Part shown: piece after piece, positions 1-9,839 of the stretch
How positions within the stretch are numbered: the stretch's first letter is position 1
Layout of the letters: every line of letters begins with the position of its first letter
Assembly: GCF_002854065.1 (NCBI RefSeq)
Contig: NZ_CP024147.1
Source: Escherichia coli
GTDB taxonomy: Bacteria; Pseudomonadota; Gammaproteobacteria; Enterobacterales; Enterobacteriaceae
Reading direction: 5' to 3' (one strand)
DNA: 64,000 nucleotides
Translations under genes and position numbers: made by a program
Notes under the pieces: model-generated
Told to the model about the DNA's origin: nothing
Databases searched by the model: none
What the model saw: only the letters and a program-made list of their open reading frames with translations

Positions 1-132
1 AACTCTCTTTATATATTCAGCAGATAAAAATATAACTCATTAACAAAAATCATTTGTTTTTGCCCCGTTATATTCACCGTTACAGCGACTTACAAAATTA
101 AGTCATTCACTCACTGACGCCGATTAAATATT

Positions 133-141
133 CCTGTATCG
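133..141. repeat. Target-site duplication CCTGTATCG, left copy
   Basis: Identical 9-mer directly abuts both IS1 ends (133..141 and 910..918). Confidence 0.85.
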
Positions 142-156
142 GGTAATGACTCCAAC

Positions 157-660
157 TTATTGATAGTGTTTTATGTTCAGATAATGCCCGATGACTTTGT
201 CATGCAGCTCCACCGATTTTGAGAACGACAGCGACTTCCGTCCCAGCCGTGCCAGGTGCTGCCTCAGATTCAGGTTATGCCGCTCAATTCGCTGCGTATA
301 TCGCTTGCTGATTACGTGCAGCTTTCCCTTCAGGCGGGATTCATACAGCGGCCAGCCATCCGTCATCCATATCACCACGTCAAAGGGTGACAGCAGGCTC
401 ATAAGACGCCCCAGCGTCGCCATAGTGCGTTCACCGAATACGTGCGCAACAACCGTCTTCCGGAGCCTGTCATACGCGTAAAACAGCCAGCGCTGGCGCG
501 ATTTAGCCCCGACGTATCCCCACTGTTCGTCCATTTCCGCGCAGACGATGACGTCACTGCCCGGCTGTATGCGCGAGGTTACCGACTGCGGCCTGAGTTT
601 TTTAAATGGCGGAAAATCGTGTTGAGGCCAACGCCCATAATGCGGGCGGTTGCCCGGCAT
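157..660 (-). CDS. insB: IS1 InsB reading frame (167 aa); expressed as InsAB' transposase by -1 frameshift at the A6C motif (597..603, minus strand)
   Basis: ORF track 167 aa ending LNIKHYQ; reverse complement of 597..603 is AAAAAAC inside the insA/insB overlap. Confidence 0.93.
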
Positions 661-854
661 CCAACGCCATTCATGGCCATATCAATGATTTTCTGGTGCG
701 TACCGGGTTGAGAAGCGGTGTAAGTGAACTGCAGTTGCCATGTTTTACGGCAGTGAGAGCAGAGATAGCGCTGATGTCCGGCAGTGCTTTTGCCGTTACG
801 CACCACCCCGTCAGTAGCTGAACAGGAGGGACAGCTGATAGAAACAGAAGCCAC
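579..854 (-). CDS. insA: IS1 InsA (transposition repressor, 91 aa)
   Basis: ORF track 91 aa [37 protein letters not shown]..., recognised InsA. Confidence 0.95.
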
Positions 855-909
855 TGGAGCACCTCAAAAACACCATCATACACTAAATCAGTAAGTTGGC
901 AGCATCACC

Positions 910-918
910 CCTGTATCG
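910..918. repeat. Target-site duplication CCTGTATCG, right copy
   Basis: Identical 9-mer directly abuts both IS1 ends. Confidence 0.85.
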
Positions 919-992
919 TTCTTAATGAGCAGTCTACTTATATTCATATAATCAATGAATATTAATCAATATATAATACATAGGGAATGTAA

Positions 993-1160
993 ATGAACAA
1001 ATTTATTAAAGTTGCACTGGTAGGTGCAGTACTGGCTACGTTAACTGCATGTACTGGTCATATTGAAAACCGTGATAAGAACTGCTCTTACGACTACCTG
1101 CTGCACCCAGCAATTTCTATTTCTAAAATCATTGGCGGTTGCGGTCCTACTGCACAGTAA
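993..1160 (+). CDS. yhfL: Small lipoprotein YhfL (55 aa), MNKFIKVALVGAVLATLTAC lipobox signal; absent from the ORF track (below 60 aa)
   Basis: ATG at 993, TAA at 1158..1160; translation MNKFIKVALVGAVLATLTACTGHIENRDKNCSYDYLLHPAISISKIIGGCGPTAQ matches YhfL from memory. Confidence 0.85.
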   Translation: MNKFIKVALVGAVLATLTACTGHIENRDKNCSYDYLLHPAISISKIIGGCGPTAQ

Positions 1161-1201
1161 GTCTCTGACAGAAATCAGCTAACACCGGTTTAATTGCCCG
1201 A

Positions 1202-1236
1202 CGCCCTCTGGATTTTCCGAGGGCGTATTTGTTTCT
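1202..1236. terminator. Intrinsic terminator hairpin between convergent yhfL and yhfS (CGCCCTCTGG ... CCGAGGGCG then T-rich)
   Basis: GC-rich inverted repeat followed by TATTTGTTTCT. Confidence 0.6.
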
Positions 1237-1266
1237 GCATTCTTTTCGAAAACATCATTCACAAGA

Positions 1267-2352
1267 TTAAATACTGGCAATACTCTCACGCAAAATCCGC
1301 AGCACCGTCTCTTCACCGCTGCGATTCGGGTTAATGCGAATCGCACAATGTTCGAGTTGCGGATTCGCCTGGCGGAACGTTCCGGAAAGGCGATAAAAGA
1401 GCGGCGGGATTTCATATTTCGACTCTGCACCGACCGGGTAAGGCAACGCGCCACGCTTTTGCGCTTCTTCCAGCACCCTGGCGGCAATCGGCTGATGAAA
1501 CTCGACAATCAACACCTTCGACTGCGCATTGGCAATGACGGCGCTTTTCACTTCCGGCACTGCACCACCGTTGAGCAAAGCCAGCAACCGTTCAGATACC
1601 CCTGCCTGCACCGCGTGCATCACTGGCGCGAACACCAGCCCACGCAACACTTCCAGCGCCTGTGAGCCCTGGATCTGGCTGCCGCCGGAGTAAAGCGTGG
1701 CGCGAATCCGACTAATAACATCGGCATCGCCAACCACTGCACCAACGCCCTCCGGCCCAAACAGCTTGAAGCAGGAGAATGTCGAGACATTCGCGCCGCA
1801 TTCACAGCCGATTCGCGCCACCTTCATCACCGCATAGTTGTCATCGGTTAACGCTGGAACACCTGCCGCGCGCAACGTTGCCAGCACATCTGCCAGCACA
1901 TAGCTGTCCTGCGGCTGCTGGCGCGTATGCTGCACCAGCGCGGCATCAGGTTGTTGCTCGTCGACGACCTGCTTCAGTGCCGACAGGGCATTGAAATCAG
2001 CAGTAATAAGCGTCAGCCCCATCTGCTCAATAATAACCCGTGTCGTTGGGTAAACAGGCGCGTCATGCACCAGAAGACGCTGCCCCGGTTTGAGCAAAGC
2101 CGCCAGCCCGGCGCGAATCGCGCCAGTCCCCGCGCCCTGCACCAGCGCCGCCGCTGGTGCATGAAACGCATCTGCCAGCACCTGCTCCACCCGCTGGGTA
2201 ATGCGCGGTTGATTCAACCCTGGAGTTAACCCTAAATCACCGCCAGTAAGAAACTCGCTGCCGGGGAAATGGCGGCAGATGGTGTCCACCAGCGCAAACT
2301 GCTTTTGCTGCGCTTCATTAAGCGTCAGGCTTTGCAGAGGAAACGTCTTCAT
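1267..2352 (-). CDS. yhfS: YhfS, PLP-dependent enzyme family protein of unknown function (361 aa)
   Basis: ORF 361 aa, length and synteny match K-12 YhfS. Confidence 0.85.
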   Translation of the reverse strand: MKTFPLQSLTLNEAQQKQFALVDTICRHFPGSEFLTGGDLGLTPGLNQPRITQRVEQVLADAFHAPAAALVQGAGTGAIRAGLAALLKPGQRLLVHDAPVYPTTRVIIEQMGLTLITADFNALSALKQVVDEQQPDAALVQHTRQQPQDSYVLADVLATLRAAGVPALTDDNYAVMKVARIGCECGANVSTFSCFKLFGPEGVGAVVGDADVISRIRATLYSGGSQIQGSQALEVLRGLVFAPVMHAVQAGVSERLLALLNGGAVPEVKSAVIANAQSKVLIVEFHQPIAARVLEEAQKRGALPYPVGAESKYEIPPLFYRLSGTFRQANPQLEHCAIRINPNRSGEETVLRILRESIASI

Positions 2353-2363
2353 AGGTGCATTCC

Positions 2364-3668
2364 TTAAGCCGGAATAAACAGGCCAAACCAGTAAAGAACA
2401 TTCAGCAGGATGCCGGTGATCATTACTGCCACGACCGGTGCCGCCATTTTCTGTACCGGACGGCCCAGGGATTCGTTGAGGAAGTAAATGGCAACCGCGA
2501 TAGAGAATCCGGTATAACCCGCCATCTTAATTGCTGCGAAAATCGAACCGACCAGCAGCGCCACTTCCATCAGCATATTCATGGCGTTACGGATGTTATC
2601 CGACGCATTACGCACCGACGGGTAGCGTCCCAGCCATTTGCCGATAGAACGAAGCAGCAAGACTTCCGCCGAAATAACCACTGCGCCTAATACCGCTGCA
2701 ACCATCGGATTCGGCGAGAGATAGCCCACCGCATAAACAAAGGTAAAGCCCGCAACTGCATACACACCCGTTGCTAAGGCGGTGGTGGCAATCAACGGTA
2801 CAAAACCCAGCCCGCGCATAAATTCTGCCAGTGCCGCCTGGTTGATCAGCGTTTGCGATTGTTCCGGCGTTACGCCTGCGGAATATGCTTTCTCAAGGGT
2901 GAAGATCGACACTTCACTGCCAGCAAAAATCTTCATGCTGGCAACGGCGGCAATCAGCGCCCCTACAATAGCGATATACGGTAAGTTTTTGATAATCCGC
3001 GACGTGCGTTCTTCAAACACCGAAAGCCCGCTGGCATCGATGTCATTTTCATCACGATGACGCAGGTCGTGAGTTATCGCGATCCCCAGCAGCATCACCA
3101 TGCCAATAAAGATTTCGATGGATTCAGGGTTAAGATGTGGGAAATAGCGCACGACTACCACACGGGTCATCAGAACAACCACGGCGGCGACCAGACTTTG
3201 CTTCCAGCCAAACTGGTAGAAAATCGCCACCAGCGGGAACAGTGCAAAAGCAGAAACCACCGGCGAGCTTAATTCCCCGAGGCTACCTAATACATCCACC
3301 GGCAGCGCGGTCAGCAGCTGGTTTACTGGCAACAGGCAAGTAAGGATCAACACGCCCCAGATAGCGCCAAGACCAAACGCCATCAGGCTGTTTATCGCCA
3401 GTACGCCGAGGATATCGGTAGGAAGAAAGAGTAACCATGCGTTTAGCAGCCCGGTTTTCAGGGTAAAAGAGATCCCCACCGAGGCCACAAAACCAATGCT
3501 CAGACCAAAAGCGATACTCCCCGCCTCGCGACGGTTCATATAGCCTTCAATCAGTTGCGGCAGGATCGGGCGGATGCCGTCATGAAAAACAGCCGCCGAG
3601 CGATGCGCCAGAAGCGATGTCATACCCGTCAGGCACGCCACCACGATAATCTGAATATACAGATCCAT
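2364..3668 (-). CDS. yhfT: YhfT, multi-pass inner-membrane protein, putative transporter (434 aa)
   Basis: ORF 434 aa, highly hydrophobic; synteny. Confidence 0.85.
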   Translation of the reverse strand: MDLYIQIIVVACLTGMTSLLAHRSAAVFHDGIRPILPQLIEGYMNRREAGSIAFGLSIGFVASVGISFTLKTGLLNAWLLFLPTDILGVLAINSLMAFGLGAIWGVLILTCLLPVNQLLTALPVDVLGSLGELSSPVVSAFALFPLVAIFYQFGWKQSLVAAVVVLMTRVVVVRYFPHLNPESIEIFIGMVMLLGIAITHDLRHRDENDIDASGLSVFEERTSRIIKNLPYIAIVGALIAAVASMKIFAGSEVSIFTLEKAYSAGVTPEQSQTLINQAALAEFMRGLGFVPLIATTALATGVYAVAGFTFVYAVGYLSPNPMVAAVLGAVVISAEVLLLRSIGKWLGRYPSVRNASDNIRNAMNMLMEVALLVGSIFAAIKMAGYTGFSIAVAIYFLNESLGRPVQKMAAPVVAVMITGILLNVLYWFGLFIPA

Positions 3669-3679
3669 AGTCGTGCCTT

Positions 3680-4033
3680 TTATTTCAGATGGTTAATCAG
3701 CATCGGAATCGCGTGTTCGACGTGCTCAACGGAAAGGCCAAACGCCACTTTTCCTTCAGCGATCATTTTGGCGATATGCTCGTCTTTCGCTTTAATGCCT
3801 GGTTTGGCAATGGTGCAACTTTTGTTATAGCCAATCACCGCGATGGCAATCGACAATGCCGCGCCCGCACCGGTATTACACGCGCCGATGTAATAATCCA
3901 GTTGCCCGGATTTCACCTTCATTGCCGCTTCCATGTCGTTGTGAATGAAAACTTCAAAACAGCCAGGAGCCGTCGCTTCAATAGTTTTTTTAATCTGCTC
4001 ACGCTGTAAGCCTGCAACGCCAATCTTTTTCAT
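3680..4033 (-). CDS. yhfU: YhfU (DUF2620 family, 117 aa); ORF-track start at 4072 is probably an over-extension
   Basis: Internal Met MKKIGVAGL gives the K-12 length of 117 aa. Confidence 0.75.
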   Translation of the reverse strand: MKKIGVAGLQREQIKKTIEATAPGCFEVFIHNDMEAAMKVKSGQLDYYIGACNTGAGAALSIAIAVIGYNKSCTIAKPGIKAKDEHIAKMIAEGKVAFGLSVEHVEHAIPMLINHLK

Positions 4034-4043
4034 GAGTCTGTCC

Positions 4044-4922
4044 TTATTGGAAAAATTGAGAGGGATTTTCACGTAACATCACATCCACATCGGCCTGACT
4101 GAATCCTGACTGGCGCAATTGCGGAATAAAGGTGGTTAGTAAATAGTCATAGCCATAACCACCGTTGGCTTTTAAATGGGAGCGGCGCGTAATATCCATC
4201 GACAGCATGACGCGGTTCAGCAACCCACGGTCGCGTAGCGCATGAAGCATCGCAATACGCTTTTCGTCCGGGTAGTAACTGTTCTTACCAATGGTGTCGA
4301 ACTGCACATACGCGCCGAGATCGATCATCTTCAAAATGTTGTCGAGGTTGTCTTTCAGATCGCAGTGACCAACGGTGACGCGCGAAAGATCAACTCCGTG
4401 GGCTTGCAACAAAGCCAGTTGCTCCAGCCCCATCGTGCTGAACGACGTATGCGTGGAGATCGGGCGTCCGGTCTGGTTATGTGCCAGCGCGGCGGCAATA
4501 AATACCTTCTCTTCCAGCGGCGTAATCTTCCCTTCGCTGGAGCCGATCTCCGCGATGATCCCGGCTTTCAGTTCCGTGCCATCGATACCCTGCTCAATTT
4601 CATCGACCATCTCCTGCGCCAGTTCCTGCACGCTGCGGGTCGCCACATGTTCCGGGAAAAACGCGTCCTGGTAATAACCGGTACAGGCCACCACGTTGAT
4701 CCCCGTCTCGCGCATTACATCGAGCATAAATTGCGCATTGCGCCCCATGTAACGGTTGGTCATCTCAATCACATTACGCACGCCCCGGGCCATCAGGTCG
4801 TTCATCTCCTGGCAAATGAACGAATACTGATCAAGGCGGCAGTCCACGTTGTTTTTAAAGCCGGAGAGATCAATATGCAGATGCTCATGGGCGAGGGTGT
4901 AACCCGTCGGATCAAAACTCAT
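4044..4922 (-). CDS. php: Php, phosphotriesterase-homology protein (amidohydrolase superfamily, 292 aa)
   Basis: ORF 292 aa, HxH metal-binding start [20 protein letters not shown]; synteny. Confidence 0.9.
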
Positions 4923-6145
4923 AGGGTGTCTCCTGCAAACCGGAGGGAGGAAAGAAAAGAGCGACCATTTTGTGGCGGTGGCGCACGGAAAAATTCACAC
5001 ACGGTAGCCCCCACATCAGAAAGCGTGGTGCGCACACCGATCTGCGTAGTGACCAGCCCTTGCTGATAAACCAGCACTGGCACCACTTCACGGGTATGGT
5101 GGCTGTGACCAATGGTCGGATCGTTACCGTGATCCGCCATCACGACCAGGCAATCATCTGGCTGCATCGCCTCGACAAGCCGGGCAAGATTACGGTCAAC
5201 GACCTGCAAACGTTCGGCATAACTTGCGACGTCTTCTGCGTGACCAGCGAGGTCGGTTTCCTGAATGTTGGTGCAAATAAACGCTGTCTGATGGGTGATA
5301 AATTCGTCGAGGGTGATATCCATAATCCGCTGGCTATCCACCAGATTTTGCCAGCTCACGCCATAAGGATTGTTGACGATATCTGCCACCTTACCCACCA
5401 GCACGGTTGGCACGCCTGCTTCATACAGTTTTTGTGGCACCTGCACTTTTTCATCGACGCCATAGCCCATATGCACGACCTGGAAACCGTTGTCATAAGC
5501 GCCAGAACGCGGCGCATTAATACCAATAAAGCGCCCTTCTTTGCTTTCTGCGGCATCGAGAATACGCTGACTGTCGGTTAACAGGCCGCCAAATGTAATG
5601 ACCCGACCGACCTGTACCTGGTCACGCACGATACGACCAATTTTGATTGCGTCGTCAAAAGAGATCACAGAGAGATTGGCGGTAATGTTATAGACTTGGC
5701 CTAAATCCGCCTCGAGATTATCGCCAATCGCAACCGCCTGATTGACTCACAGAAATTGCAGTTCATCGCCACGGCGCTCCACCTGCCAACCGGCGGATAC
5801 TAATGCCTGCTCAACACGGTCAATCACATCGCGAAAGGGCATCCGCAGCGGCGGTAACGGGCGCGTGCCTAAAATTTCCTGATGCCCCATAAAGGTATCG
5901 CCACCTTCATGTTGCAGCTCTGCCACACCCCAGGTTGCGGAGTCTGACGGCTGCATATCACCTGGCGCATAACCCAATGCGTTGATTAGCCCCAGCTTCT
6001 CCAGCGTTGGTAGCTGCAAATGCGGCAGCTGGCTCAGGATGTGACCACAGGTATTCGCTCCGGCATCTTGCGGGCGCACCAGCGTGACATCTTTCATTGC
6101 ACCTACGCCAAAGCTATCAATCACTAACACCACAAATCGCGCCAT
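4919..6145 (-). pseudogene. yhfW: yhfW (phosphopentomutase-like, 408 codons) interrupted by an in-frame TGA at 5747..5749 (codon 133)
   Basis: ORFs 5747..6145 and 4919..5668 are in the same frame; the combined span of 1227 nt equals K-12 YhfW of 408 aa plus stop. Confidence 0.8.
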
Positions 6146-7308
6146 TACGCCTCCAGAGAGTTTCCAAGACTGTCATAACGACCGACAATTTCCGGTTCGC
6201 CACGCTGAATACCCGATACCAACACCACATCACTGCGGGTAACAAAAATCTGCGTACGAAAACAGAACACTACGGCACTACTCACCGGAAACTCGCCTGC
6301 TAACGGCAGGTAATAGTCGATACTGCTGTCATCCACAGTTTTGAGATTTGTTTCAGTAATCTTTTGATTTTCTGGCGTAAACACCAGCGCATGTTGCGCA
6401 TGACCACGACGGTAATAACCGCCGCCGTAGCAGTAGCTGTCGCCACGGAAATGGTGGGAAATTTCACTTAACCAAAGCATCGCGATACGTTCAGGCTGAT
6501 CGCCCTGCTGGTTTGCCGGAATTGTGCCCGTCAGCGCATGACCGGGTTCGGCATGAGTCACACCGTATTGCGCCAGCAATGGCAACGAAGTGCAGCTGGT
6601 CGCAGAAGGTGCGTTCAGTTGCTCAATCGCAATACCAGATTTCGCCAGTTGATCCCGTGCCTGTATCAGCGTGTGAAGATTCGGTGTCGGCAAAACTTTC
6701 CCGGCAGCCTCATCCCAAAGCAGGCAAGGGAAATGGGTTAGTCCGGCTAAATGCAGCCCCGGCAGTTTCTTAATTTCAGCAACCACCTCGTGCAGCGAAT
6801 GCTGTACAAAACCGCTCTCCTGCCCCGGATAAAGAAAATCATCGTCGCTATAAACTTTGAGCAGCACAGACTGGATTCGCCCGGCTTTCACCGCCGCCGC
6901 AGAAACTTCCCGCGCTTTGTCGAGAGTAAACACGGTGATGACGTCGGTGCCCTGTTCAACGGCGTCAGCAACCTGATGACAAGGGATTTGTACCAGATGC
7001 CCCTGATGCGCCACCGGCAAACCAGCGCGGCGCATGACTCGCGCCTCTTTGTAATCCACCGCCACAATGCCGCTGTAGCCCAACGCCAGCAGTTTTTCCG
7101 CCAGCCATGGGTTACGACCGAATTGTTTGGTCATCAGATACAGTTCAATGCCGTAAAGCCGCGCCGTCTCAATCTGCCGCTTACCGTTTTCCAGTATCTG
7201 ATCCACGTCGATCACCCAGCTGTCCGGGGCGATCTTGCCCTGCTGCCACAGACTTAAAGCGGCGGAAATCAGCGCCGGGTTCTGGCGTTTCAATGCTTCT
7301 ACAAACAT
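6145..7308 (-). CDS. yhfX: YhfX, alanine-racemase-fold (fold type III PLP) protein, 387 aa
   Basis: ORF 387 aa; synteny; 4-nt ATGA-type overlap with yhfW start. Confidence 0.85.
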
Positions 7309-7391
7309 CTTGTTGCCTCGTTTCTGTTCCTTGAATTAAATATTCATTTTTTTGAATATTTAGATTGTGCGACGTGGATTTGCCGAATGCC

Positions 7392-7754
7392 TCAGATACT
7401 TTCGTTAGCAGCCATCCATAATCCATAAAGGTTGGCCAGCAAATAGCCTTCTTCACACGGGTTAACTTCCAGTGCGAATTCCTTCAACAACACCTGATGC
7501 AATTGCACAACGGCTTGCCAGTGGCTGGATTGCGCCAGCTCTGCCAGCAACTCGTTATCCAGTGGCTCAATTTCTTCACCACGGCGACTGCGCATCAGTG
7601 CACTCGCCATATGTGTCATCGCCATCGTTCCTTGCTCACTGCGCACCGGCAGATGGCACTCTGTTTCCAGTACCTTGACGACCTGCATCATGCCTTTGCA
7701 GATGTCCTTATCAATAACGCCTGCATCGCAAAGCAGGTTGAGTCTGGTTTCCAT
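7392..7754 (-). CDS. yhfY: YhfY (120 aa); start taken at internal Met METRLNL
   Basis: K-12 length 120 aa; ORF-track start at 7796 would overlap yhfZ. Confidence 0.75.
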   Translation of the reverse strand: METRLNLLCDAGVIDKDICKGMMQVVKVLETECHLPVRSEQGTMAMTHMASALMRSRRGEEIEPLDNELLAELAQSSHWQAVVQLHQVLLKEFALEVNPCEEGYLLANLYGLWMAANESI

Positions 7755-7770
7755 ATCAGATGCCTTTCGT

Positions 7771-8676
7771 TTAATAACTCGGTTCCTGTTCCCCACTCAC
7801 CACCCGTTGTTGATGGGCGAGCAGGGCGTGTTTATCTACAACGGCACGCAGCAGTTGTTGCATTGGGTAATCATCGACTCGCGTCAGGACCACGGCTTCG
7901 GTGGCCTGTAAAAATCGCGGATCGTCTGTGAGCGGCGTCGCCTCTAATCCCAGCATGGTCAGTTCGTTTTCCGCCACCACGTTCCAGATAACCGCATCAA
8001 CATCGCCTTTAACAATGCGTTGTAAACTCTCGTGATAAGAGAGATCGACTCGTTCCACATCACTACCGCCAAAAAAGACATCAGTCATGATTTTCTGATC
8101 CGCCGAACGGTTATCCAGCCCCACGCGCTTCACGTTTGCGGACTCGCCTTTACGGCAAATCAACTGGTGCTCGCCAACGTAGGTGTGCGGCCCCAACTCC
8201 AGCGCGAGGCATAACCCTTTTTGCGTGAGATAACTTTCCGCCGCCAGTCGGGAAACCACCGCCATGTCATACACGCCGTTAAGTAAACACTCCACGCGAA
8301 TATCCGCGCCGCGCATATGCGCATAGTAAAAAGGAATGCCATCAAACTGGGCTTTCAATCCGCTCGCTAAACCTTCGTACAAGCGGGTATAGGGCAAAGG
8401 CATCGCACATACCACGTTGTTGATATCCACATGACTCAGCAATGCTTTGTTATCCATCTCGACCAGATAACTGCCATTGCGCCCACGGCGTTCAATCCGT
8501 ATCGCTCCGCTTGATTCCAGCGTTTTCAACGCGGCCTGCGTCAGGCCAACGGATGAACGGCATTCAGTGGCCAGTTCATCTATAGTTTTCAATCGGTTAC
8601 CGCACTTTTCACCCAACAAATAACGGGCCAGCGTCGTGATGACGACGCCTTCTTTTTTGATAAACGTTCGACGCAT
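7771..8676 (-). CDS. yhfZ: YhfZ, putative regulator with N-terminal HTH (301 aa)
   Basis: ORF 301 aa; synteny. Confidence 0.85.
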   Translation of the reverse strand: MRRTFIKKEGVVITTLARYLLGEKCGNRLKTIDELATECRSSVGLTQAALKTLESSGAIRIERRGRNGSYLVEMDNKALLSHVDINNVVCAMPLPYTRLYEGLASGLKAQFDGIPFYYAHMRGADIRVECLLNGVYDMAVVSRLAAESYLTQKGLCLALELGPHTYVGEHQLICRKGESANVKRVGLDNRSADQKIMTDVFFGGSDVERVDLSYHESLQRIVKGDVDAVIWNVVAENELTMLGLEATPLTDDPRFLQATEAVVLTRVDDYPMQQLLRAVVDKHALLAHQQRVVSGEQEPSY

Positions 8677-8834
8677 AATAAATTTTCAGTAAATTGAATA
8701 TTTATATCTTCAGGAATTTGAAGATAAGGCGCAACTGTGAGATGTGGAAACGGCGAGGCGCTTCACATTTTTTCGGATTATTGCAAATGAGGATAAAAAA
8801 ACCGGGTTTCCCCGGTTTTGGCATTAATGTTAAA

Positions 8835-9839
8835 TTACGGCTTCGCCACAAAACCAATCGCTTCGTACACCGCTTTTAGCGTACGGGAAGCGTGCGCGCT
8901 GGCTTTTTCTGCGCCGTCTTTCATCACCTGTTGCAGGAAGGCTTCATCGTTGCGGAAACGGTGGTAACGTTCCTGCAATTCAGTCAGCATACCGGAAACG
9001 GCATCAGCCACTTCACCTTTCAGATGACCATACATCTTGCCTTCGAACTGTTTTTCCAATTCCGGGATACTCTGGCCCGTTACCGCAGAAAGGATATCCA
9101 GCAGGTTGGAAACGCCCGCTTTGTTCTGCACATCGTAGCGAACTACCGGCGGCTCGTCGGAGTCGGTGACCGCGCGTTTGATTTTCTTCACTACCGATTT
9201 CGGATCTTCCAGCAGGCCAATAACGTTATTGCGGTTATCGTCAGACTTGGACATCTTCTTGGTCGGCTCCAGCAGCGACATTACGCGCGCGCCGGATTTC
9301 GGAATAAACGGCTCCGGCACCTTAAAGATATCGCCGTACAGCGCGTTGAAACGCTGGGCGATATCACGGCTCAGTTCCAGGTGCTGTTTCTGGTCTTCAC
9401 CCACCGGTACCAGATTAGTTTGATACAGCAGGATGTCCGCTGCCATCAGCACCGGATAGTCAAACAGACCAGCGTTGATGTTCTCGGCATAACGCGCAGA
9501 TTTATCTTTAAACTGCGTCATGCGGCTCAGTTCGCCGAAGTAGGTATAGCAGTTCAGTGCCCAGCCTAACTGCGCATGTTCCGGTACGTGGGACTGAACA
9601 AAAATGGTGCTTTTCTCAGGATCGATACCACAAGCCAGATACAAGGCCAGCGTATCCAGCGTCGCTTTACGCAGCTTCTGTGCATCCTGGCGCACGGTGA
9701 TCGCGTGTTGGTCAACGATACAGTAAATGCAATGGTAGTCATCCTGCATGTTTACCCACTGACGCAGCGCACCCATGTAGTTACCAATGGTCAATTCACC
9801 TGAGGGCTGTGCGCCACTAAAAACGATGGGCTTAGTCAT
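8835..9839 (-). CDS. trpS: Tryptophanyl-tRNA synthetase (334 aa), HIGH-like TIGN and KMSKS motifs
   Basis: ORF contains [10 protein letters not shown] and KMSKS. Confidence 0.97.

Follow-up and report, generated by a model that had tools for sequence, protein, structure and literature searches.

The window analysed here, a stretch of 64,000 nucleotides of Escherichia coli DNA, carries the known E. coli locus yhfZYXW-php-yhfUTS at positions 1267-8676. The first-pass annotation had described eight co-directional, tightly packed genes, and the ORF listing of the window bears this out: the interval is filled by eight minus-strand genes, which at six of their seven junctions either overlap by 1-4 bp or stand 10-16 bp apart; at the seventh, yhfY and yhfX are separated by an 83-bp spacer. 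All family assignments made at first pass were likewise recovered with Pfam and NCBIfam profiles. The gene order yhfZ-Y-X-W-php-U-T-S beside trpS is that of annotated E. coli records. At the DNA level the locus is 100% identical to two genomes and 97-99.5% identical to other annotated E. coli, with the same order and neighbours. Genes, order and trpS-side neighbour are shared with the yhfZY and php-yhfSTUWX units of E. coli K-12/B (b3376-b3383), and an operon table groups php, yhfS, yhfT, yhfU, yhfW and yhfX into one unit (PMC4448311). The cluster was found in 5059 of 5426 complete E. coli genomes and is thus ordinary for the species.

On the upstream side the yhf unit is bounded by a terminator-like hairpin after trpS (8798-8819, minus strand), a nine-pair stem followed by a T-run; the trpS-yhfZ spacer measures 158 bp here versus 289 bp in BL21. 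On the downstream side lies the convergent yhfL (993-1160, plus strand; 55 aa, Pfam DUF4223 at 5e-38), which is separated from the yhfS stop codon by 106 bp containing no frl genes. The cluster therefore directly abuts yhfL, as had been claimed, while BL21 carries frlABCDR at that place. This direct junction is common (~2097 of 5426 E. coli genomes, about 39%). Compared with the K-12/B units, the allele in the window differs by the absence of frlABCDR between yhfL and yhfS, by an IS1 element upstream of yhfL and by a stop codon, W133*, in yhfW.

yhfW (4919-6145, minus strand) belongs to the Metalloenzyme/PRK12383 family (Pfam, NCBIfam) and encodes a phosphopentomutase-like metalloenzyme. It is a pseudogene in this strain: codon 133 (5747-5749) is changed from TGG to TGA, and the in-frame TGA at 5749-5747 replaces a codon that BL21 reads as TGG. 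The nonsense codon reported at first pass was confirmed by sequence and translation as well as by the RefSeq entry for the identical allele, a pseudogene annotated ‘internal stop’. The two fragments cover PRK12383 positions 1-132 and 134-408. When YhfW was considered as a phosphopentomutase DeoB equivalog, the fragments gave 49.5 and 98.6 bits against TIGR01696 (cut-off 341), and PRK12383 was matched instead. W133* would cut YhfW off before most of the catalytic domain, and polarity may in addition lower php-yhfUTS expression; impairment of the pathway in this strain is therefore probable. In our locus survey yhfW was naturally missing from several Yersinia species, and loss of YhfW thus need not abolish all function.

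We wondered whether the cluster might be a decaying, non-functional remnant in this strain, and regard this as possible though doubtful. Besides the yhfW stop codon, there is an IS1 element 358 bp away from the cluster, and lesions occur independently elsewhere: BL21(DE3) carries IS1 in yhfS, Citrobacter koseri shows no more than partial-length matches for YhfZ, YhfW, YhfT and YhfS, and Trabulsiella shows partial-length matches for YhfT and YhfS. However, the other seven of the eight reading frames are intact and their differences from BL21 are mostly synonymous: the 32 nucleotide differences in yhfT yield 4 amino-acid changes, and the 25 in yhfZ yield 2. The candidate operators before yhfX and yhfZ are intact as well. 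The stop allele is rare (2 of 5035 genomes), and its confinement to two near-identical genomes indicates that it is recent.

The regulator gene yhfZ (7771-8676, minus strand; 301 aa) lies at the upstream end and encodes a GntR-like HTH domain (HTH_41, 7e-19) followed by a solute-binding-protein-like C-terminal domain (YhfZ_C, 3e-84). The protein scored 374 bits against NF041241 YhfZ_full (cut-off 260). As expected of a GntR-type regulator, HTH and effector domain go together with a conserved candidate palindrome at its own and its target promoters. This 24-bp palindrome, AAATATTCA-N6-TGAAWATTT, was found in the window solely before yhfX and yhfZ and represents a candidate YhfZ operator. The site before yhfX (7338-7361) is a perfect palindrome, AAATATTCA-N6-TGAATATTT, located 30 nt upstream of the start codon, and has the highest PWM score of the window (36.8). 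Two tandem candidate operators precede yhfZ (8680-8703 and 8704-8727; PWM 34.4 and 20.6), the first ending 4 nt before the ATG. The next-best site in the 64 kb scored 8.7; shuffled sequences gave no matches, and none are expected by chance. The position of the yhfX site is conserved across Enterobacterales, and the tandem sites before yhfZ recur in Citrobacter, Buttiauxella and Cedecea. Other genera carry the palindrome at corresponding positions, and PWM matches numbered 99 in 190 kb of intergenic DNA versus 18 in coding sequence totalling 1.3 Mb. In three Firmicute-type loci a related palindrome (ATATWCA-N6-TGWATAT) stands before yhfZ, yhfU or the PRD gene. Three Enterovibrio yhfUTXW loci that lack yhfZ contained no operator sites.

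yhfY (7392-7754, minus strand) encodes a small stand-alone PRD-like protein of 120 aa. Its matches to Pfam PRD (8e-4, 20.1 bits, gathering score 23) and to TIGR03582 (1.6e-6, under the cut-off) are weak; distant orthologues are labelled PRD in precomputed Pfam annotation. In a set of 68 sequences, T47-H48, R55, D66, E101 and N108 reach at least 95% conservation. Position 108, where sequence reading as opposed to a PRD alignment would place the second histidine of canonical PRDs, is this conserved Asn.

YhfT (2364-3668, minus strand; 434 aa, PF10797) is a polytopic membrane protein and the presumed transporter. Its structural model is confident (pLDDT 95.8), yet no solved structure matched. Its partner YhfU (3680-4033, minus strand; DUF2620, 117 aa) is a shortened RpiB/LacAB-like protein. 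A structural test for the RpiB fold was positive, and YhfU keeps a Cys-x-Thr motif that aligns with the C-G-T-G of PDB 2PPW. C52, T54 and G55 of YhfU show no variation among 34 sequences and reach at least 95% conservation in a set of 75. Pfam LacAB_rpiB gave no matches for YhfU, and sequence matches in the PDB had E values of 0.4 or worse. In contrast to the matched RpiB/LacAB chains of 148-212 residues, YhfU ends at residue 117, about 30 residues short of these isomerases, and thereby lacks their C-terminal phosphate-binding helix. In RpiB this helix carries phosphate-binding Arg and His residues. Also unlike RpiB/LacAB, to which it has no significant sequence match, YhfU has a genetic link to a membrane protein: yhfU and yhfT stand side by side in all 81 loci surveyed.

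We also considered a new PTS-like group translocation, in which YhfT would act as EIIC-like permease and YhfU as Cys phosphocarrier, uptake would go along with phosphorylation of the substrate, and YhfY would sense the phosphorylation of YhfU through its PRD. We consider such a system improbable. YhfT did not display an EIIC fold, and the combination sought for a PTS EIIB, namely an EIIB fold with a phospho-accepting Cys and a cognate EIIA, was not found for YhfU.

Comparison across taxa strengthened the label ‘catabolic-looking’ given at first pass. A core of yhfY, yhfU, yhfT, php, yhfX and yhfW, usually with yhfZ, is clustered in Enterobacterales, Vibrionaceae and Firmicutes, with YhfT identity falling to 27%; metagenomic and Firmicute loci contain the same gene set at 27-47% identity. 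Among the 81 loci php was present in 72, yhfW and yhfZ in 70 each, yhfY in 66-68 and yhfX in 58. In about ten Vibrionaceae loci the cluster is flanked, in varied orientations, by a cellobiose/chitobiose-family PTS with DUF7916 and by a gene for a secreted protein with a chitin-binding module, and operator sites also precede the flanking PTS genes. In Vibrio comitans a bona fide nagB (411 bits, cut-off 237) sits inside the cluster, with yhfW and yhfU on either side, and operator sites are additionally found before a sulfatase-maturase operon. These PTS, nagB and sulfatase neighbours may reflect lineage-specific substrates.

Php (4044-4922, minus strand; 292 aa) is a binuclear-metal hydrolase of the phosphotriesterase family (Pfam PTE, 9e-147). 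It scored 654 bits against NF007373, the generic ‘phosphotriesterase-related protein’ (cut-off 486), and matched PDB 4LEF and 1BF6 with E values of about 1e-196. The best sub-threshold NCBIfam equivalogs were organophosphate hydrolase OPH (100.2 bits) and phospho-furanose lactonase (100.0 bits). These 100-bit scores fall far below the cut-offs of 500 (NF041153) and 630 (NF045706), respectively. Phospho-sugar lactonases of the Lmo2620/PDB 3PNZ type (NF045706) and PTER share the binuclear-metal TIM-barrel family with Php. The matches of Php to 3PNZ and to lactonase-like PLLs had E values of 5e-33 and about 1e-38, respectively; the NF045706 cut-off was far from reached. PTER is an N-acetyltaurine amidohydrolase, and the family thus also cleaves amides beside an anionic group (PMC11374699).

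The families of Php and of YhfW, a member of the alkaline-phosphatase superfamily, would fit scavenging of an organophosphate, phosphodiester or phosphonate with Php as esterase and YhfW as phosphatase or mutase. So would the phosphatase genes that recur beside the cluster, which in several taxa encode HAD enzymes and periplasmic acid phosphatases (PhoC-like, class B). We regard such scavenging as very unlikely: the organophosphate hydrolase score of Php is low, neither a pho-box nor any phosphonate gene turned up, and two PLP enzymes and an isomerase would be idle.

These PLP enzymes are YhfX and YhfS. YhfX (6145-7308, minus strand; 387 aa) is of fold-type III (Ala_racemase_N, 5e-21; YhfX-like_C, 2e-39), and its residues 1-386 match PDB 4KBX (E 5.1e-252), an entry titled ‘Uncharacterized protein YhfX’. 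YhfS (1267-2352, minus strand; 361 aa) is of fold-type I and encoded by the last gene of the operon (Pfam YhfS-like_C at 4e-45, Aminotran_1_2 and Cys_Met_Meta_PP). It matches PDB 4J8L, titled ‘Uncharacterized protein YhfS’, across its full length (E 3.8e-229). yhfS was found in 33 of the 81 loci; it is missing from Yersinia and Vibrionaceae and present in five of six Firmicute-type loci. A short amidase-signature gene also occurs in five of these six loci.

Two PLP enzymes could also serve a non-sugar substrate, an amino-acid-derived amide or lactam or a D-amino-acid compound that Php and the amidase would open, YhfX would racemise and YhfS would transaminate or eliminate. The best, though weak, NCBIfam equivalog of YhfX is ornithine racemase, YhfS resembles Cys/Met gamma-lyases, and the Firmicute amidase gene and the amidohydrolase activity of PTER point the same way. 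However, the conserved phosphopentomutase-like YhfW and RpiB-like YhfU would be left without explanation, as would the ties to PTS, nagB, sulfatase and chitin-binding protein. We therefore judge a non-sugar substrate unlikely.

Known systems offer partial parallels. The Salmonella dgaABCDEF D-glucosaminate and frl/gfr glycated-lysine operons are repressor- or activator-controlled routes of gut catabolism, in which a sugar acid or sugar amine is taken up, loses its amino group to a PLP-dependent enzyme or a deglycase, and ends up as central sugar phosphates. They employ mannose-family PTS or APC transporters, SIS deglycases, a SelA-like lyase and an aldolase; genes of these types are absent from the yhf cluster, and frl itself is missing from the entire window. 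The EF_0829/AHA_3910 cluster (TIGR03576-TIGR03582) resembles yhf in being a rare function-less cluster common to Firmicutes and Proteobacteria. YhfY weakly matches its PRD model TIGR03582 (28.5, cut-off 69) and YhfS weakly matches TIGR03576 (17, cut-off 304), while the remaining members were not seen at the yhf locus. A search of about 8 million freely searchable full-text papers yielded no pathway assignment for yhfS/T/U/W/X/Y/Z, yhfV, DUF2620 or Php, in agreement with the initial view that substrate and pathway are unassigned. YhfW is still termed ‘uncharacterized’ (PMC7730263) and YhfZ a ‘putative transcription factor’ (PMC12147183).

On balance we favour, with some reserve, the view that yhfZY/yhfXW-php-yhfUTS is a repressor-controlled catabolic operon for a nitrogen-containing sugar-type compound and is probably impaired in this strain. 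The tightly packed or overlapping genes and the sensor-domain regulator at the upstream end speak for such operon logic. A sugar or amino sugar is suggested by RpiB/LacAB-fold YhfU, phosphopentomutase-like YhfW, the sub-threshold lactonase match of Php and the nagB, sulfatase, PTS, chitin-binding protein and phosphatase neighbours; nitrogen chemistry is suggested by the two PLP enzymes and the Firmicute-type amidase genes. The likeliest candidates for the substrate are amino sugars, amino-aldonates and sugar-amine or sugar-amide conjugates.

We propose that YhfZ, a predicted winged-helix dimer with a solute-binding-like sensor, binds the candidate palindromes and would keep both yhfZY, the unit that encodes it, and yhfX-to-yhfS repressed until substrate or an intermediate is bound, and that YhfY, as a one-histidine PRD-like module, may link this switch to the PTS phosphorylation state. 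The catalytic steps are each deduced from family membership. YhfT would import the compound, YhfU might perform a Cys-dependent isomerisation of the aldose-ketose type, Php might open or deacylate a lactone, lactam or amide bearing an anionic group, YhfW might move phosphate between hydroxyls, and YhfX and YhfS might racemise or eliminate the amino group. The route would end in a central sugar phosphate, for instance GlcN-6-P or Fru-6-P. Counting against this model, the E. coli yhf cluster contains no kinase or phosphorylase gene, which leaves the origin of the phosphate moved by YhfW without explanation. The missing C-terminal helix of YhfU and its lack of a significant RpiB sequence match also count against it.

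More tentatively, YhfT may found a structurally new class of membrane transporters that is obligately paired with a minimal RpiB-like cysteine enzyme, YhfU. A nine-gene ancestral operon (PRD, YhfU, YhfT, amidase, Php, YhfS, YhfX, YhfW, YhfZ) might then represent an undescribed catabolic route for an amino-sugar conjugate of relevance to both gut and sea, such as an oxidised product of chitin or a hexosamine that is sulfated or otherwise modified. Control of the entire system would lie with a regulator and operator that Firmicutes and Proteobacteria have both conserved.

Eight co-directional, tightly packed genes had been described at 1267-8676 in the first-pass annotation, and the six-frame ORF list and its translations recovered exactly this arrangement on the minus strand. 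Pfam and NCBIfam likewise agreed with the family proposed for every gene. At the upstream end, yhfZ (7771-8676) carries HTH_41 and YhfZ_C (NF041241, 374 bits, cut-off 260) and is followed by yhfY (7392-7754), which has a weak PRD match, and yhfX (6145-7308), with Ala_racemase_N and YhfX-like_C. For the product of yhfW (4919-6145), the hits were to the Metalloenzyme family and to PRK12383, a 'phosphopentomutase' model, and php (4044-4922) encodes a phosphotriesterase-family protein (NF007373, 654 bits, cut-off 486). Downstream lie yhfU (3680-4033, DUF2620), yhfT (2364-3668, PF10797) and yhfS (1267-2352), a fold-type-I PLP enzyme with a YhfS-like_C domain according to Pfam and NCBIfam. At six of the junctions, neighbouring genes are separated by 10-16 bp or overlap by 1-4 bp; at the seventh, yhfY and yhfX stand 83 bp apart.

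On the downstream side, yhfL (993-1160, plus strand) and the stop codon of yhfS are 106 bp apart and enclose no gene, so the direct yhfL-yhfS abutment without the fructoselysine (frl) operon holds; BL21(DE3) carries frlABCDR at the same position. An 8-bp perfect inverted repeat, ACGCCCTC...GAGGGCGT, with a T-rich run (1196-1228) sits between the convergent yhfL and yhfS; it is absent from the list of the consensus scan and is probably the yhfL terminator. The upstream side of the cluster is bounded by a terminator-like hairpin 3' of trpS (8819-8798). The trpS-yhfZ spacer (8677-8834) measures 158 bp compared with 289 bp in BL21(DE3). A BIME-type repeat has been described upstream of yhfZ in K-12 (PMC2965389), and the segment missing here is probably this repeat. 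An Rfam search of positions 1-9000 at E values up to 1, covering the leaders and the yhfY-yhfX spacer, returned no riboswitch or other known RNA element; mentions of a 'riboswitch' and a 'BIME attenuator' in the literature (PMC4448311, PMC2965389) concern no yhf-specific element and were set aside.

The yhfY-yhfX spacer contains a perfect palindrome, AAATATTCA-N6-TGAATATTT (7338-7361), 30 nt before the yhfX ATG, and a near-identical site (8680-8703) ends 4 nt before the yhfZ ATG. These two were the sole matches in 64 kb at up to 2 mismatches, and 100 shuffles gave none. A position weight matrix (PWM) built from orthologous sites scored them at 36.8 and 34.4, respectively, and scored a tandem third site (8704-8727) at 20.6, with the next-best position in the window reaching 8.7. 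Over the loci fetched for comparison, the PWM gave 99 matches in intergenic DNA (190 kb) versus 18 in coding sequence (1.3 Mb); of the intergenic matches, 51 are found in front of yhfZ and 30 in front of yhfX. No site was present in the three yhfUTXW loci of Enterovibrio, from which yhfZ is missing. In three Firmicute-type loci (L088, L087 and L090), a related palindrome, ATATWCA-N6-TGWATAT, precedes yhfZ, yhfU or a PRD gene. The simplest reading of these patterns is that the palindrome is the YhfZ operator. YhfZ would then control two units, an autoregulated yhfZY and yhfXW-php-yhfUTS, the latter in agreement with an operon listed previously (PMC4448311).

An operator-like palindrome, AAATCCTCA-N6-TGAAAATTT, is also conserved within php of Vibrionaceae, roughly 180 nt into the reading frame (for example L066 9271-9294, L071 9270-9293 and L084 9272-9295). 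Vibrionaceae php accounts for 12 of the 18 coding-region matches. The palindrome could be an operator within the gene, or it could simply reflect conservation of the protein-coding sequence.

The YhfT family is small, with 303 of 1.84 billion cluster representatives matching at E <= 0.001. Scanning one genome per species across 100,044 species for the DUF2620 motif yielded 270 loci; the 80 that were fetched belong to Enterobacterales, Vibrionaceae and one Aerococcaceae MAG. Genes were counted across 81 loci by tblastn and ORF clustering. The adjacent pair yhfU-yhfT was present in 81/81, php in 72/81, yhfW and yhfZ in 70/81 each, yhfY in 66-68/81, yhfX in 58/81 and yhfS in 33/81. Yersinia and Vibrionaceae loci lack yhfS, and several Yersinia species also lack yhfW. 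Metagenome loci with 27-36% YhfT identity retain PRD-php-yhfU-yhfT-yhfX-yhfW, and the full set including yhfS and yhfZ was found in five of six Firmicute-type loci (L085, L087-L091); the contig of L091 starts at the PRD gene, hence yhfZ is not seen there. Five of these six loci additionally carry a short amidase-signature gene, recognized in four by context look-ups and in L085 by a Pfam scan. Taken with the Firmicute-type gene set, the amidase suggests that the ancestral unit probably comprised nine genes, of which the amidase was lost in the E. coli form and yhfS in Vibrio and Yersinia.

Sub-modules occur as well: in Enterovibrio, one locus holds yhfZ-Y-php-U-T and a second holds yhfU-T-X-W. 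On one contig of Photobacterium lipolyticum, a full cluster and a yhfZ-php-yhfU-yhfT cluster (L057/L058) lie 12.8 kb apart, separated by a PTS-DUF7916 operon and a gene for a secreted chitin-binding protein.

We considered whether YhfT and YhfU might be PTS-like. The AF2 model of YhfU (pLDDT 96.8) has an RpiB-like fold, the next fold class scoring 8.6 and PTS EIIB domains about 7.3, and in alignments its invariant C52-N-T54-G55 corresponds to the C-G-T-G loop found in the RpiB family. YhfU falls short of RpiB by about 30 residues and does not match it significantly in sequence; we therefore describe YhfU as RpiB-like in fold and catalytic loop and not as a demonstrated family member. For YhfT (AF2 pLDDT 95.8), Foldseek against solved structures found no relative (best E 0.088, TM-scores <= 0.22); from its topology and context we infer that YhfT is a transporter. 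The PTS-like assignment was rejected on this fold evidence and is retained as a rival of low probability. YhfY contains one near-invariant histidine (T47-H48), and, judged from its sequence alone, a conserved Asn108 would occupy the position of the second histidine of canonical PRDs.

The genes that accompany the cluster elsewhere bear on its substrate. In Vibrionaceae, candidate operator sites are also located in front of a PTS of the lactose/cellobiose family (IIB-IIC-IIA) that is accompanied by a DUF7916 gene. V. maritimus (L076) has a perfect match, and L059 and the distant L003 likewise carry sites. About 10 loci have this module beside the yhf genes, in orientations that vary, and it is often joined by a secreted protein (about 730 aa) with a chitinase-type chitin-binding module at its end. 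Neither the DUF7916 protein nor the N-terminal portion of this secreted CBM5/12 protein had an informative PDB match by sequence. Sites in Vibrio comitans (L067) are located ahead of an operon for a sulfatase and a radical-SAM maturase and ahead of yhfY and yhfU; at this locus nagB lies between yhfW and yhfU (411 bits, equivalog cut-off 237). HAD, class-B and PhoC-type phosphatase genes recur next to the cluster. In some Enterobacterales without yhfS, acid phosphatase genes (PhoC-like PAP2, class-B, periplasmic) follow yhfT in the same orientation (L049 11705-13408, L061 2803-3648, L064 11712-12527).

These accessory genes, the RpiB-like YhfU, the phosphomutase-like YhfW, both PLP enzymes and the amidase of the Firmicute loci jointly point to a nitrogen-bearing sugar-type compound that would be processed to a central sugar phosphate, a prediction at the level of class and not of an exact molecule. 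The E. coli cluster encodes no kinase that would account for this phosphate.

We also analyzed the state of the locus in this strain. The predicted nonsense codon in yhfW is real: an in-frame TGA (5749-5747) occupies codon 133, which is TGG in BL21. The stop (W133*) deletes about two thirds of YhfW, including the match to Metalloenzyme profile positions 72-250, and RefSeq annotates yhfW as a pseudogene ('internal stop') in two genomes with the identical allele. A 61-bp probe centred on the TGA was 100% identical in 2 of 5035 genomes, strain 100416 (Gambian stool) and CUWW06 (wastewater), which are also the sole genomes 100% identical across the entire cluster. Judged by this distribution of the allele, W133* is recent and limited to one lineage. 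The message downstream of the stop, 1.1 kb that would go untranslated, could also exert polarity on php-yhfUTS. As some Yersinia species naturally lack yhfW, the other genes may retain some function. The other seven genes look constrained in sequence; relative to BL21, amino-acid changes per nucleotide differences were 4/32 for YhfT, 2/25 for YhfZ and 0/1 for YhfU.

Near its C-terminus, YhfW contains a RAPP ribosome-stalling motif (residues 388-391, FRAPPPQ, about 4970-4990), reported as the sole RAPP of the MG1655 proteome (PMC12992588). We rejected it as a conserved regulatory device, as it occurs in 2 of 70 YhfW orthologues, both from Escherichia; E. albertii YhfW has RASPP in its place.

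Independent lesions exist elsewhere. The yhfS of BL21(DE3) bears an IS1; this IS1A splits the gene in E. coli B/BL21 (L002, 6198-8060), making a common expression host a natural yhfS mutant. YhfZ, YhfW, YhfT and YhfS matches are only of partial length in Citrobacter koseri NCTC10786 (L016), as are those of YhfT and YhfS in one Trabulsiella strain (L037). In the window, a complete 768-bp IS1 (142-909; insB ORF 157-660, minus strand) lies in the cysG-yhfL intergenic region, flanked on both sides by the 9-bp direct repeat CCTGTATCG (133-141, 910-918). The two genomes with the identical yhf allele have no IS1 at this site, so the insertion is specific to this strain.

Among 5426 complete E. coli genomes, 5059 (about 93%) carry the cluster at a coverage of at least 80%, and about 2097 of the 5426 have the frl-less yhfL-yhfS junction, which is thus a common polymorphism. 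We discarded a functional tie to the adjoining frl operon of K-12/B because frl is missing here and in those genomes. No frl-like gene was seen among recurrent cluster neighbours in other genera, and we treat the adjacency in K-12/B as coincidental.

That substrate and pathway are unassigned was borne out by full-text searches of the open-access literature, which gave neither. YhfW was an 'Uncharacterized protein' in 2020 (PMC7730263) and YhfZ a 'putative transcription factor' in 2025 (PMC12147183). Structures have been solved for three cluster proteins, Php (1BF6, 4LEF), YhfS (4J8L, 'Uncharacterized protein YhfS') and YhfX (4KBX, 'Uncharacterized protein YhfX'), and none has led to a function assignment. 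Two literature hits were dismissed: in PMC9396866, 'b3379' designates a plasmid and a strain and is irrelevant to the cluster, and the yhfW entry of the iJO1366 gap-filling paper is a guess at E = 0.47.

The locus is an already-known, near-universal E. coli cluster, and its strain-specific traits (no frl, the yhfW stop, the nearby IS1) are ordinary, minor polymorphisms. It is among the larger gene blocks of E. coli without an assigned function. The candidate YhfZ operator and regulon, the YhfU fold and the orphan YhfT fold make that function easier to test, and the accessory genes (cellobiose-type PTS with DUF7916, nagB, sulfatase, amidase, phosphatases) narrow the substrates worth screening. 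If the substrate is a host- or chitin-derived amino-sugar derivative, the cluster would add a nutrient niche common to gut Enterobacterales, enterococci and marine vibrios.
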